NCBI RefSeq assembly: GCF_013167455.1
Contig: NZ_CP038328.1
Source of the DNA: Escherichia coli O157:H7
Lineage (GTDB): Bacteria; Pseudomonadota; Gammaproteobacteria; Enterobacterales; Enterobacteriaceae
Strand: one strand, 5' to 3'
DNA length: 64,000 nucleotides
This document shows, in pieces, positions 54,901-60,900 of this stretch. The first letter of the stretch is position 1. Each line of letters starts with the position of its first letter. The position numbers are program-made.

Positions 54901-57900
54901 GGAGCAGCCCTGACATCTGCACTGGCTCCGTTCCTGAAGGGGCGCGGAGGGGTTGACGTTGCGTCCCGTATATTACGCAATGCTCTGGTTCGCCAGCTGG
55001 CAATAACACCGCCTGAAATTGCCGGGGATTATCGTATGATTCTGGATGAATCCGGTGTGATGCCTGACCCCATGATGGTTCGTGATTGCCAGAGCTCTTA
55101 CACCCCTGCACAACAACTGCGCTTTCAGCAACGTCTGGATTACATTAACGGCATGCAGGAGTAATATTAATGGCACTTAAATGTCCCGAATGCGGTACGA
55201 CGGCACACGCCAGAACCTCCGCCTATGAAGCACCATCGGTTAAACGCTCATGGTATCAGTGCCAGAATCTTGAATGTTCCTACACATTTACCGCACTGGA
55301 AAGTGTGGATACGATAATCATGAAGCCCCGGCGCAATGAACAGGAATCAGAGAAAGCACAAATGCCGGAAAAACAACAGCAAACTCTCAATCGCTATGGC
55401 TCCGCGTCAAAGCTGTCAAGCCGTCAGCAAATTCCTGTCTGATTAGCAAAAAAAGCCCACGTAATCCCGGTCCAGTACTGGGATTTTTTACGCCTTTTCC
55501 CTGGCTGGCCTGAGAGCGCATGAGTGCATGTCTATAGCGCATGAAAACGCATGATTCTCATGCACCATTTTTGACGCGAAAGCCCTTGTGTGGTGGCTTC
55601 TGAGACGATTTGCGGAATGCATGAAAACCAGTCTGTTAAGCGAAGCGAGCAGGCGTGGGGGGCTGCGCGCGCTAAGGGGTTAGATTATAAAATATCAAAC
55701 GCCGGTGAGATCCATTATTGTGGAACCACCCGAAGGAAGTGTAGAGGCGAAAGTACCCAAAATAATTTTGCAAATTATTTAGAAATGAACTGAGCGCTCG
55801 AAACGAAATATAATTTCGAGCACCCCAATTAGCAGTTATATTTTTAATGTATTAAACAGGATAAAAACCAGAGCTTCCATTCTTATTTAAGTTATGGATT
55901 TTATTTGCATCATTAATTTTTATTTGGAACGTCGGACCTTTATTCTCAAGAATTACAATCTGGAAATTATAGTCCCTTTTGATTAATGCGTGATAAAATG
56001 AATCACTGAGACTGACGCTATTAACATCCGATAGAGAACCCCCTCTATCTTTATCAAAGTGCGTCACTAATGGACTATCAAGCACAACAAATCCAATGAA
56101 TGGATTCCCTTTTCTTGATAAAAATTCCGCAAAGCAAATGGTAAATATAGCATGCATTACTGCACGGGTACCTTTACCAAACATTCCTCGGCGTTTCCCA
56201 TTGATATTAAAGTCATATGTATCTTCGTCAAATCGCACTTTGTTATCTTTAGAATTTTCAAAATTTATATCATTCAAAAAGTCTTGCATCGCTATTTCTA
56301 TATCATACAAATCAGCTACTGTTAAGGAGTCAAAGTCCTCGGCGGAGTATTTAAGTTCGTCAACATCATCTTCTTTATCTTGTAATGAAGATAGAATGCT
56401 ATGTTTTGTGTGATCCATTAAAAGATTGTCTTTATATTCATAAAGTGATTCAAGAGATGAATGTATTGTTTTATATTTTTATCTTCTAACGTCTTAAAAT
56501 CACTTTTTTCTGATTGATAAATTTCATTAACATCATTTTTTCTTAACATAATTAATTCATGTTCGCGAACATTAGATCCGATTGATTCAATTAATCCTTT
56601 CAGCTGGCTTTTGATTTTCAATTTTTCTGCATTACACGACAAAAAACAATCATCATATGATATTTCATTTTCTTTTTTTTGCGGTGTATTACAGAACTCA
56701 CAATAAATATCTGCAAAATTATTTAAATAGAAATTCGCCTGTGATACAACATCTATTCTTTGTAGATCTATAAAGTATTGGTCTTTAAGAAGACTAAATC
56801 TTTCAATGAGTAATGATAAGTATTTTTCCCTGTCACTGATTGAATATAATTCATCACTTAACTCTTTTAATAATTGCTTCTTATCATCAAGTGCATCAAC
56901 AATACCTTTCAATATATCTTTCGATGATTCAATATCTTGCTCTACTTTCTCAAGTTCTCTTGAAACAATGACTTGATCATATTCAGGATAAATTAATTGC
57001 GCTTTCAATTCCTCATAAATATTTGCAATTTGATTTTTTTAAAAATATCTTGCTTTTTTATTTGGTTTTTCTGCTAAGGAGTTAGTATCATCTCTCTGAG
57101 TTAAAAGGAATTTAAATTCAGACTTTCTTTTTGTCTCCTCGCTAGGAATATCAGAAAGAATTAACGACTTCTCAGTTAACACTCTTAATTCATCAATACA
57201 AAAAAATTCAAAAACATTATTAAGATTAAATTTATGAAGAGTATTACTTAAGTTTGTTCTTACTTTAGCCTCTTTGAAATTCAACCTACCATAAAAGTAT
57301 GATGAAAAACTCTTTTTAGACGAAGCACTTTTGGAAAAAACCATCAACAGATTAGCTTCACTAACATTTTCAATGCTCGAATCATATAATCTGTAATGGG
57401 CGCTATCCTGAAGAGACCTCTCAATTGTCATTACCCTACCTTGAAAATTAAATTCCAGATAGGCTAAATCATAACCTTGAGCATGATCGATATCTTTATT
57501 TTTTAGTTTTTCACTCCCTAATAAATATCGAATCAAATAATATATGTATGTTTTTCCAGAGTCAGAACCACCATATAAAATAGTCAATTTAGAACCAAAT
57601 TCAATTATAGCATCTAATTTATTGAATCCGGTTACCTTTATTTTTCTGAACGTAAAAAAATTGTCATTCATAATTAAATTCCATATCATATTTGCCAATT
57701 TTATTTTTTATAATTGATTGCAACTGCTCATCAGGAATATCACTATATAACTTAACCACCAAATTTATATTATGCTCCATCTGCGCAACATATTCATTAT
57801 GTAGAGAATTTGTAAATGCATATGTTTTTTCAGAAGCTTTATATACAAAACCACGATGTGTATAAATTTTTGAGGCTAGTTCATAGCCTTGCAACAAAGC

Positions 57901-60900
57901 CAATGATTCTAAAACAATCTCTCGTTTTAGGGCTAACTGAGCATCTCTACGGGGTATTGGAGGATGAAGACTAATCTCTTCAGGTAAAAAATCCTTAAGA
58001 TTTACTAAAATAAAATCAAAACAAATAAGCCGTTCAAGGCTTAATGAAGAAGGATAAATAGCGACGAGCACTTTCGCCATTCGACATGCCACTTCTAAAC
58101 TTGAATTATAAATTCTAACCATTATCTCACCGTCCAAATTACTTCACCATCATTAACCAAATGATGGCATATTCCTTTTTTATCATTTGCTTCACATATT
58201 TTTGATAGTACTGAATGTGCAATTGGTGTCAGAACAGCCTGCTTCAAGACTGCATTACACCTAATAAATGCATAATTATGGTCTTCATAAAAGACGGGTT
58301 CAATTGAAGATGAAATGTAACATTTCAATGCTTTGAATACATCATCTTTAAATACTTCGCGGACAAAAACCTCAAGCGAAGATGCAAAATAAAAATCATT
58401 TCTACTATTATTAAAGTGTCGTCTGTATGGATCATCAAGCTCTAAGAAAGAACTATAAGTTTTATTTCCATGCTCTGAATAGGCTTGAAGCAGTGCATTA
58501 ACATATACAGACTCTTTTTTTGAATTGTATGTTGGAATTTCATTTGGAGGGATTCTCACGACATACAGCTCGTTAAAGTACTTAAAATAAAGGTGTGTAT
58601 TTGCAATATCATTTAAAATCAATGATAAGGGTAGAGAGTAAAAAATACTAAAATCAAAATCCTCAATATATTTTTTTATTTCATCATCTAATGGAATATC
58701 AATCTTTTTAGTTATTTTTTTGAAATTGCTGAATCCCATGAATCAAGGACTGCTTTTTTAAGCTCGTTTTTATTTTTCAATAAATTAGAAAATGTAGTAG
58801 ATAAATCATAGGGTGCCACAAAAAAGTACTTCTGAGGGATGGGATAATCACCATTCAGAGTAAAATAGATAAGTTTTCCAAACTCAACTACAACATCAGA
58901 GAACCCTAAACTTTTTTTGTACAGTTTGCATTGATAATTATCCCAAGAATAACCTTCTACGTTAGGATCCGATTTATATCCAACAACGTCTCTACCTTTA
59001 TCTCCAGCTCCTCCCAAACGTTCGCTCCACGGGTAATCATCTGATTTACAGACAATAAGCCAATCATGGACAAATACCTCCCATGTTCATCATCCCATGT
59101 CAATATTTCCGAAAGTGGTTGAGACACAAATTAACTCCTTTTTAGTCTTTCAAATATCAAATTACTGTACCAGTCCATCATAGACTTCCTTCCACTAAAA
59201 TATTGAGCATGGTTATAAGTCCCCCTAATAGAATTTTTATCTACATGAGCCAACTGGATTTCAATCCAAGCACTCTCAAAACCTTGCTCATGCAGGATTG
59301 TAGAAAGGGTATGACGAAAACCATGTCCAGTGACTTTTCCTCCATACCCAATACGCTTAATGGCTTGATTTATACTCGCTTCGCTCATTGGCCTATTCGG
59401 ATCGTTCCGCCCTGGAAAAACATAACGATAGTTCCCTGTCATGATCTTGAGTTCATTGAGTAAATCTACCGCTTGAGATGATAAGGGCACAAGATGTGGC
59501 CTACGCATTTTCATCCTTTCAGCAGGAATTTCCCAAATAGCGTTATCCAGATCAAATTCTTGCCATAATGCCGCGCGTAATTCGATGGTTCTCACACCCG
59601 TAATCATCAGTAATTTCGTGGCTATCTGGACAAGCTTACTCCCGGAGTAACCCTCTAAGGCACGTAGAAAATCAGGTATCTCATCAGCTTTTAGGAATGG
59701 GAAATGATTGGATTGGTGTACTTCGAGAGCGCTGGAGAGATCAGCCGCAGGATTGTACTCCGCCCTACCCGTTGCAATTGCGTAGCGAAACACTTCGGAG
59801 CAACGCTGCCGCACTTTGCGCATTTTCTCCAACGCACCACGTTTCTCAATTTTACGCAGAACGTTCAGCAGCTCTAGCGGTTTAATCTCTCCCACAGGCC
59901 TTGTTCCGACATAAGGAAAAATGTCGTTCTTAAACGCTTCCATGATGTCTGATGCATATCCCGCCGACCATTTAGCAGATTTAAGTTGATGCCACTCTCT
60001 GGCTATCTTTTCGAAGGCGTTCTCTGACTCTGTTTGCATAGCTAGCTTTTGCTCTTTTCGAACCTCACTAGGGTTCTTTCCTTCTGCCACAAGTTTTCGA
60101 GCTTCATCACGACGGGAACGAGCATCGGCAAGGGTGATCGTTGGGTAAACACCAAGCGAGATCATTTTGGGTTTGCCGGCATAGCGATAGCGGAACCGCC
60201 AACTCTTGCTTCCATTAGGTTCTATAAGTAATGACAACCCTAGCCCATCTCCAAATGTATAGGCTTTAGCTTCAGGCTTAGCGCGGCGAATCTGCATATC
60301 GTTTAAAGGCATGTGTATAGGAATCCAGACCGAACAGGAACATATACACAATCCTATACACATTCAGTACCGGATTCTACTGGATGGTTACGGACTACTA
60401 TGGACTTAAAAGAATAAAAAATGTTATAAATCAGAGATTTTATGGACTAATACGGACGTTTGAGGAAGTTGAGATGGTGCCGATAATAGGAGTCGAACCT
60501 ACGACCTTCGCATTACGAATTATAAGAATCCGCTTCTAATTCAAAGCATTACCCCATCAACACTGCGCTCACACGTCCCACCACATCAAAACATGTAAAG
60601 CCTTGCAAGCCATTGCGAGGCCTTATGTGTCTCAGTTTTGTCCCACCTTGTATTACGACTTGCATAGCCAATGAAGATAAACGTGACGACAAACGGCGCA
60701 GCAGTCTTCTTTTCTTTCACGACTTCTCCAGCATGCATACCTTTCTGCCATGACTGAAGTGAATGCCTGTTATGAGCGAGGATTGGCCCAGATGAATCGC
60801 CCTGGACTGTTGCGATCGTGAAGCCATAGACTGGGCCGCAAGCACGGGAGGTTACGATAAAGCGACAGTGCAGGATGTCATGTTAGGAGCGATAGAAAAA

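Follow-up and report, generated by a model that had tools for sequence, protein, structure and literature searches.

A decayed three-gene Lamassu/ABC-3C operon in the integrase-proximal slot of a P4-like satellite of Escherichia coli O157:H7

Introduction

Short Lamassu systems are organized around LmuB, an ATPase of about 600 amino acids (aa) with a Walker B motif of the form hhhhD[Q/S/T/E] and zero to two CxxC hooks, and they count Mrr nucleases among their effectors (PMC12663957). Among the closest described systems are the Cap4-type short type II Lamassu of Vibrio cholerae (DdmABC/LmuABC) and Salmonella enterica (LmuACB), which have been studied by cryo-EM. Here, we compare these systems with a cassette of six open reading frames (ORFs) in a 64,000-nucleotide (nt) window of E. 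coli O157:H7 (contig NZ_CP038328.1, assembly GCF_013167455.1), to which all positions refer. We assign a probability of about 0.88 to the reading that this cassette is a decayed short type II (three-gene) Lamassu/ABC-3C operon, lmuA-lmuC-lmuB, in the integrase-proximal slot of the P4-like satellite Sp2, and that the copy in the window is most likely dead.

The expanded Lamassu family, including members with Mrr effectors, was defined by Millman et al. in 2022 (10.1101/2022.05.11.491447). In the same study, defence by the Lamassu-Mrr system of E. coli O150:H5 SE15 required the ATPase, the effector and lmuC, and showed an abortive-infection phenotype. A model of effector sequestration, DNA-end sensing and tetramerisation has since been described, with SbcCD as the proposed evolutionary source of Lamassu (PMC12663957). 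In the solved complexes, the C-terminal CTD6 domain of LmuA serves for sequestration and oligomerisation; it is the only part of LmuA that contacts the partner proteins, and it drives oligomerisation (10.1101/2025.03.14.643221).

The locus itself has also been described. The Domainator paper (Nucleic Acids Res 2024, PMC11754643) called it 'Lamassu-var', related it to type II Lamassu by PADLOC, and found it to be the commonest content of the Psu-integrase hotspot in E. coli, with 259 instances of 3-9 coding sequences each. Fragmentation of three genes would produce variation of this kind. For an allele cloned in that study (CP038295:4116517-4120474), plaques of T-even phages were reduced in size, as seen at the highest phage dilutions.

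Gene identities and architecture of the cassette

The six ORFs, all on the minus strand, lie within 55852-59127: ORF A (58712-59017), ORF B (58122-58739), ORF C (57664-58137, with an ATG at 58122), ORF D (57039-57698, with an ATG at 57671), ORF E (56418-57008, with a TTG start at 57008) and ORF F (55852-56418). They derive from three genes, A and B forming LmuA, C forming LmuC, and D, E and F forming LmuB. Fragments A-F tile the three PADLOC Lamassu profiles end to end, and the conceptually repaired proteins match them over their full lengths (LmuA, 8e-89; LmuC, 2.9e-36; LmuB, 4.7e-117). Protein and DNA alignments with homologues agree with the proposal of the initial annotation that A+B and D+E+F are each one broken gene.

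That annotation, made by inspection of the DNA, had suspected a Lamassu/ABC-3C-type defence system, and the PADLOC matches of both fragments and repaired fusions, together with the Pfam families CTD6 and MC2, confirm the suspicion. Its further remark that the proteins could not be placed in a named family, and might be an undescribed variant, does not hold: the PADLOC and Pfam matches range from 1e-29 to 1e-117, the locus is in print as 'Lamassu-var', and RefSeq already names ORF B 'ABC-three component system protein' and ORF C 'ABC-three component system middle component 2'. NCBIfam has no model matching any fragment of the cassette.

The 5' part of lmuA (58712-59127) comprises codons 1-138 of an ancestral 335, starting from a GTG at 59127, and encodes an Mrr-type PD-(D/E)xK nuclease domain. 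The 3' part, ORF B (58122-58739), encodes a linker and the ABC-3C CTD6 domain (Pfam PF20282, 3.5e-29), its first ~9 residues being an out-of-frame translation. On the PADLOC LmuA profile of 336 positions, ORF A covers 44-140 and ORF B 141-333. In an alignment of 49 homologues, some as distant as 29% identity, the residues W23, G42, D43, G45, D47, Q66, C67, K68, E82 and K85 are invariant and E17 nearly so. These residues form an E…D…QxK pattern and include residues of the GDKGRD and QCK motifs pointed out earlier in ORF A; the domain has a restriction-endonuclease fold in which the catalytic E…D…(Q/E)xK residues are conserved. An AlphaFold2 model of repaired LmuA (mean predicted local distance difference test score, pLDDT, 92.9) has as its best Foldseek match the solved LmuA chain 9nxx_D (1.6e-4), followed by 9ny1 and 9uxh_C. 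Residue conservation and fold matches thus uphold the earlier reading of ORF A as an Mrr-type nuclease, and the whole protein has the Lamassu arrangement of an N-terminal effector and a C-terminal sequestration and oligomerisation domain.

The small gene between lmuA and lmuB, as expected of short Lamassu, is lmuC (57664-58122, starting from the ATG at 58122). It encodes a 152-aa ABC-3C middle component 2 (PADLOC LmuC, PDLC03871; Pfam MC2, PF20288, 6e-30), has the same length as its intact orthologues and overlaps both neighbours as it does in intact loci. It is the sole whole gene of the three, and it is intact in all copies examined. A 344-aa database protein (P0027), 96% identical to the N-terminus of LmuB, has a Pfam MC2 match as well and resembles a fusion call of LmuC with the N-terminal part of LmuB in some assembly of the locus, probably through a further frameshift or a gene-calling artefact.

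The third gene, lmuB, lies in three fragments. ORF D from its ATG (57039-57671) encodes the N-terminal ATPase half-head with the Walker A motif GGSDSGKT and covers positions 3-199 of the PADLOC LmuB profile (PDLC03863). The second fragment (56418-57038), in the frame of D and called as ORF E only from the TTG at 57008, encodes the coiled-coil arm and most of the returning helix (profile 231-412). ORF F (55852-56418) encodes the C-terminal half-head with a signature-like FGKGTR and the Walker B VVLDS (profile 428-608 of 610, 5.1e-37). Repaired LmuB has 606 aa and spans profile positions 3-608 of 610. Across 30 homologues, with identity down to 21%, the invariant residues are G34, S36, G39 and K40 of Walker A, C324 and C327 of a CxxC at a zinc-hook-like apex, G499, K500, G501 and R503 of the signature-like motif, and D532, S533 and P534 of Walker B. 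Both the Walker A (residues 34-41; consensus Gx4GK[S/T]) and the Walker B (528-533) fit the published short-Lamassu consensus.

The AlphaFold2 model of LmuB (pLDDT 86.5) shows a split head joined by antiparallel helices, 233-318 and 339-439, with the CxxC at the apex. Its best matches in the Protein Data Bank (PDB) are LmuB chains, 9uxh_F (3.4e-16), 9hqu_A, 9hqx_B, 9nyg_B and 9ux7_A, followed by Rad50 and SMC proteins. With its length of about 600 aa and a head split by a short coiled coil, repaired LmuB is thus an ABC ATPase of the SMC/Rad50-like kind found in Lamassu. The Walker A seen earlier in ORF D in an ABC/SMC-like context, the coiled coil of E and the Walker-B-like FIGFVVLDSP of F are all present as described and turn out to be pieces of this one protein, and the structure prediction proposed at the time places both LmuA and LmuB closest to their solved namesakes. 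The accompanying Pfam suggestions fared less well: SMC_N matches LmuB weakly, AAA_15 reaches an E-value of only 1.6, and DUF3732, AAA_21 and AAA_23 give no match. Gabija GajA, Septu PtuA and PARIS AriA were rejected as alternatives, as their profiles score 1e-3 to 1e-6 on the Walker A region, compared with 8e-50 for LmuB on the same fragment.

Set beside the Cap4-type systems, the cassette shares the three genes, the split Rad50-like LmuB of about 600 aa with its short coiled coil, the small LmuC, and a LmuA made of an N-terminal effector and a helical C-terminal domain. The hhhhDS form of its Walker B falls within the short-Lamassu consensus, and the best structural matches of both models are to these systems. 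It differs in that its effector is Mrr-type and not Cap4, in that its LmuB has one invariant CxxC hook whereas the Vibrio cholerae Cap4-type LmuB has none (PMC12663957), and in an identity of 7-14% to the solved chains, to which HMMER finds no link. With the Lamassu-Mrr of SE15 it shares the effector class, an Mrr endonuclease on LmuA; a blastn search of 5,426 E. coli genomes returned O157/O55 copies only, so the SE15 version is either more distant or outside this collection.

For ABC-3C (MC2 and CTD6) we found no difference, LmuC being MC2 and the LmuA C-terminus CTD6. The labels ABC-3C and Lamassu seem to denote the same systems, since the deposited name of solved LmuA chains is 'ABC-three component systems C-terminal domain-containing protein'. 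In Rad50-Mre11/SbcCD, too, an antiparallel coiled coil that carries a CxxC at its apex divides the ABC ATPase head, and Rad50 chains come after LmuB in the fold search. The cassette's coiled coil, however, is much shorter, it lacks an Mre11/SbcD partner, its Walker B reads DS and not DE, and its ATPase is coupled to a sequestered toxic effector.

The cassette has a guanine-plus-cytosine (GC) fraction of 0.310, compared with 0.448 for the integrase gene, 0.502 for sid-psu-delta, 0.523 for the primase gene and 0.471 for the whole window. Co-orientation of the six ORFs and low GC were correctly described at the outset. The argument that overlapping junctions mark an operon stands in part. The three junction strings are where they had been placed (TAATG at 58120-58124, ATGAATGA at 57664-57671 and TAATG at 56416-56420). 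Those between B and C (1 nt) and between C and D (8 nt) are genuine operon junctions, as intact orthologues share the same overlaps. The E/F TAATG, by contrast, is an accidental by-product of a frameshift, because its ATG is a conserved internal Met codon of LmuB (…DNLLMD…). A terminator-like hairpin of 13 pairs (55792-55825, minus strand), found by consensus scan 27 nt past the lmuB stop, probably marks the end of the operon. Promoter-like sites number 21, against 19.7 in shuffled sequence; with no excess, we claim no promoter.

Lesions in the E. coli copies

The lesions were located by aligning the window with the O157:H7 strain Sakai, the O55:H7 strains DEC5D and TB182A, the basal O157:H7 strain LSU61 and two intact orthologues. 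Lesion (i), at ~59085, is a 1-base-pair (bp) deletion that changes GAACAATGG to GAACATGG at lmuA codon 15, outside any homopolymer. It leaves only ORF A open in the 5' part of lmuA, with loss of helix 1 and its E17. Among the matches listed, it occurs only in the window and in three other records that match at 100%. Lesion (ii), at 58715-58721, is a 1-bp deletion producing an A7 run at lmuA codons 138-139, where intact relatives have AAAGAAAA or AATAAAA. It is common to the window, Sakai, DEC5D, LSU61 and TB182A, and shifts the frame between the nuclease domain and CTD6.

Lesion (iii) is a T>A substitution at 57040 that turns the Leu codon TTA (57039-57041) into a TAA stop at lmuB codon 211; D and E share one frame. 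The A, confined to typical O157:H7, is found in the window and Sakai, and the T in the O55:H7 strains, LSU61 and the intact orthologues; in a LmuB alignment of six sequences, five of them homologues, every sequence has Leu at this site. Lesion (iv), at 56476-56481, shortens an A run by 1 bp and shifts the lmuB frame near codon 400 (GGTAAAAAATAT in Proteus versus GATAAAAATAT in the window); every aligned E. coli allele carries it. With four lesions, the three Lamassu genes are not all intact in the window, which leaves the ancestry of the cassette unaffected.

Lesions (ii) and (iv), being shared, imply that the operon had been disrupted before O55:H7 and O157:H7 diverged, and its decay has continued since. 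Another A run on the minus strand, at 56504-56509, has six A in the window and Sakai, five in O55:H7 DEC5D and TB182A, and seven in LSU61. This shows ongoing indel decay in a dead lmuB, or possibly assembly noise. Substitutions among the E. coli copies amount to nine nonsynonymous, one nonsense and two synonymous changes, a small sample whose pattern fits relaxed selection.

Of 5,426 complete E. coli genomes, 308 carry the cassette at ≥99% identity, in a total of 309 records and with one place on a plasmid; it is 100% identical to that of E. coli O157:H7 ECP19-598. Among the matches listed, all serotyped records are O157:H7 or O55:H7, many others being labelled by strain name alone.

The allele cloned as 'Lamassu-var' is one of those aligned here. 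CP038295 is O55:H7 TB182A, which carries lesions (ii) and (iv) and an extra 1-bp deletion at 56509. It occupies the same locus, from delta to lmuA, and differs from the window at ten positions in the cassette and one in the delta-proximal spacer. Unlike the window allele, which is the more degraded, it keeps TTA at 57040 and an undeleted sequence at 59085. The words frameshift and pseudogene are absent from the main text of PMC11754643.

Intact orthologues outside E. coli

Intact three-gene operons of 335, 152 and 606 codons are present in three loci of a Pantoea type (L005-L007), in Citrobacter braakii (L011) and in an island of Proteus. The Pantoea and Citrobacter operons sit at the equivalent place in a P4-like element, in the order int | lmuA-lmuC-lmuB | ogr/delta-psu. 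In each of the five close loci, lmuA is open over 335 codons from a GTG, and shorter calls in two of them are gene-caller artefacts. Identity to the repaired proteins is 86-93% for Proteus and 74-87% for the Pantoea-type copies. For LmuB, the 606-aa protein of Proteus mirabilis is 86% identical by BLASTP, or 88% in an alignment with corrected junction, and the full-length 606-aa protein of Pantoea alhagi (CP019706) is 74% identical by protein search. A further cluster of LmuB proteins of ~609 aa, at roughly 44% identity, spans Salmonella, Klebsiella, Citrobacter, Serratia, Yersinia and Aeromonas.

The intact genes are under purifying selection, because the ratio of nonsynonymous to synonymous substitution rates (dN/dS) between the Proteus and L006 copies is 0.07 for lmuA, 0.12 for lmuC and 0.08 for lmuB, with no indels. 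The closest intact orthologue, at positions 7543-10821 of the Proteus mirabilis locus L004 (LmuA 93%, LmuB 86-88%), does not belong to a P4-like element. It lies in another island, next to smpB, whose other genes include a split integrase, a primase-like gene (DUF927) and a subunit of a type I restriction-modification system; unrelated mobile elements thus carry the same Lamassu module, which has moved between them.

The search for intact copies that had been proposed earlier thus succeeded in Pantoea and Citrobacter P4-like elements and in the Proteus island, but not in E. coli. Distant blastn searches of 5,426 E. coli genomes with the cassette and its Citrobacter relative returned only the ≥99% O157/O55 copies, with no intact E. 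coli copy among them. A pattern scan of genome contigs with repaired LmuB gave no confirmed relative, its patterns being drawn from one sequence and too specific.

The P4-like satellite and its surroundings

The cassette is bounded by a P4-type tyrosine integrase gene (59131-60363, minus strand; PHROGs, RefSeq annotation and the intact loci agree), whose stop lies 3 nt from the lmuA start, a spacing identical in intact loci. On its other side, on the plus strand, are the Sid/Psu-like gene (53864-54616), psu (54613-55164) and ogr/delta (55170-55442), identified by annotation and by PHROGs 6165, 6366 and 603 for the trio. PHROGs also match an AlpA-type regulator and an ORF of the repressor region on the flanks. 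The Sakai record labels the region 'prophage Sp2, P4-like phage' (ECs_0289-0293), includes a primase in the prophage, and already annotates ECs_0293 as an 'AAA family ATPase' pseudogene.

Rfam places a C4 antisense RNA at 52365-52452 (RF01695, 84 bits) and an isrK RNA at 52521-52598 (RF01394, 72 bits), both on the minus strand, suggesting a P4-type RNA immunity region. Both lie inside a 185-aa ORF (52116-52673) that Sakai annotates as 'phage repressor protein', a label that may be partly spurious. The core set of a P4-like satellite (integrase, Psu, Sid-like, Delta, AlpA-type regulator and primase) is therefore accompanied by a P4-type immunity RNA. These flanks, the two RNAs and the Sakai label bear out the original placement of the cassette in the delta-int slot of such a satellite.

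Psu of this element is ~31% identical to that of P4 (PMC11754643), which fits a P4-like satellite that is a distant relative of P4. The P4/P2-type cos core GGCGAGGCGGGGAAAGCAC, with the consensus taken from the P4 insert printed in the Rousset 2022 supplement, was not found at ≤3 mismatches anywhere in the window, a search that does not exclude a diverged cos. No tRNA gene that would point to the attachment site was found in 46000-64000. The distal end of the satellite, past the primase gene, holds an AT-rich ORF of 318 aa (48139-49095, plus strand; GC about 0.28-0.35; ECs_0304 in Sakai) that has no PADLOC or NCBIfam match and could be a second accessory or defence slot.

Between the satellite and the neighbouring lambda-like prophage Sp1 lie a partial IS3-family transposase gene with an rve domain (60868-61233, plus strand; 'ISEc48 partial' in Sakai) and an AT-rich gene for an AraC-family regulator (61275-62027, minus strand), nearest to YdeO/GadX but well under the NCBIfam cut-offs. 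Within Sp1, an intact 274-aa ORF (62792-63616, plus strand) adjoining a pin invertase fragment (63677-63994) matches the PADLOC single-gene system PD-T4-3 (PDLC04031, 2.7e-140, profile 1-255 of 256). Only 4 kb separates the dead Lamassu from what looks like a defence gene still intact.

Discussion

By homology to Cap4-type Lamassu, two LmuB and one LmuC of an intact system would hold a single LmuA by its C-terminal domain, keeping the nuclease monomeric and inactive. LmuB and LmuC would detect DNA ends or phage replication intermediates, and ATP turnover would release LmuA. The released protein would oligomerise through its C-terminal domain, and its N-terminal Mrr-type nuclease would degrade DNA and abort the infection. 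Lesion (ii) would uncouple the effector from this control module, as the C-terminal domain is the only part of LmuA that meets the partners. Lesions (iii) and (iv) cut the sensor LmuB into an N-terminal head, a coiled-coil arm and a C-terminal head, and lesion (i) in addition removes helix 1 of the nuclease in this strain. The window copy is thus most likely a non-functional relic.

Four points weigh against this account as a whole. Repaired LmuA has no match at E ≤10 to Mrr_cat (PF04471), a profile that the initial annotation had proposed for a check; on the supporting side, five of its 49 homologues match at E ≤1e-3 and 12 of the 49 at E ≤0.1, the best at 2.9e-6. The lesion survey covers five E. 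coli alleles (window, Sakai, DEC5D, TB182A and LSU61) out of 309 records. A HMMER profile search of PDB sequences gave chance matches only for LmuA and LmuB, so that the Lamassu link to solved structures is seen at the fold level only, and a mechanism taken from Cap4-type systems may differ in its details. Finally, the published test of the frameshifted O55:H7 allele saw smaller plaques of T-even phages which, if real, would speak against a complete loss of function (PMC11754643).

The last point leads to the strongest of the alternatives, namely that the fragmented cassette still works, possibly weakly, because the LmuB pieces assemble in trans or because transcriptional or translational slippage on A runs makes Lamassu leaky or phase-variable. 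Co-expressed Rad50 head halves do assemble in trans. Two of the lesions lie in A runs, the third run at 56504-56509 varies between lineages, lmuC is spared throughout, and the O55:H7 allele with both shared frameshifts reduced the plaque size of T2, T4, T6 and RB69 (PMC11754643). We nevertheless consider residual function unlikely. Function would require the simultaneous bypass of two to four independent lesions, one of them a TAA nonsense codon and one (59085) outside a homopolymer, and the split between nuclease and CTD6 removes from LmuA its sole contact with LmuB and LmuC and its means of oligomerisation. The ten nonsynonymous or nonsense changes against two synonymous ones, where intact orthologues have a dN/dS of ~0.1, point to relaxed selection. 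The phenotype, for its part, concerns plaque size only, at the highest dilutions, and the main text of PMC11754643 mentions no mutant controls. That the O55:H7/O157:H7 cassette in general, with its split LmuA and its LmuB in two or three pieces, still weakly interferes with T-even phages by trans-assembly or slippage seems a shade less probable again. If so, all members of a major pathogen lineage would have retained a leaky or phase-variable SMC-type immune sensor.

That the frameshifts are sequencing or assembly errors, and that the operon is really intact in this genome, is very improbable, even though three lesions are losses of one base in AT-rich sequence, assemblies differ by 1-3 bases in match length, and the lesion at 59085, with four records at 100% identity, is by itself thinly supported. 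The shared deletions and the TAA recur in independent genomes, including Sakai, EDL933, DEC5D, TB182A and LSU61, and on this agreement we reject error as the cause of these three. The same fragments recur in the RefSeq annotation of all records listed (~130 rows, some repeated, of 309), and the nonsense change is a substitution and not a homopolymer indel. It seems just as improbable that the cassette is an undescribed defence system merely resembling Lamassu/ABC-3C, as might be argued from the lack of NCBIfam models, the weak SMC_N match of LmuB and the want of sequence-level relatives among solved structures. Three PADLOC Lamassu models are matched end to end (1e-36 to 1e-117), CTD6 and MC2 are ABC-3C-specific families, and the solved LmuA and LmuB outrank all other folds. 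The order and sizes of the genes, the variant Walker B and the CxxC hook also agree with short Lamassu as published.

The decayed Lamassu operon should not be confused with the 'O157:H7 FRIK944, no activity' entry of Rousset 2022, which we rejected as this cassette; that entry refers to a cytidine-deaminase system of two genes carried by a different P4 element. As a discovery the present locus carries little weight: Lamassu/ABC-3C is established, P4-like hotspots are known carriers, and the locus is in the literature and in RefSeq. Both the system and its location are known, and the cassette is present here as a pseudogenised relic of the O55:H7/O157:H7 lineage.

The weak phenotype of 'Lamassu-var', obtained with frameshifted lmuA and lmuB, should therefore not stand for the activity of this Lamassu clade. 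We found no published test of an intact orthologue of this cassette, and the intact Pantoea, Proteus and Citrobacter orthologues are suitable for a proper test of activity. According to a 2026 preprint, P4 and P2 hotspots rarely contain defence pseudogenes (10.64898/2026.02.27.708500), a claim to which the decayed cassette is a counter-example. Across the O55:H7/O157:H7 alleles examined, this defence system decayed in place and was not swapped out.

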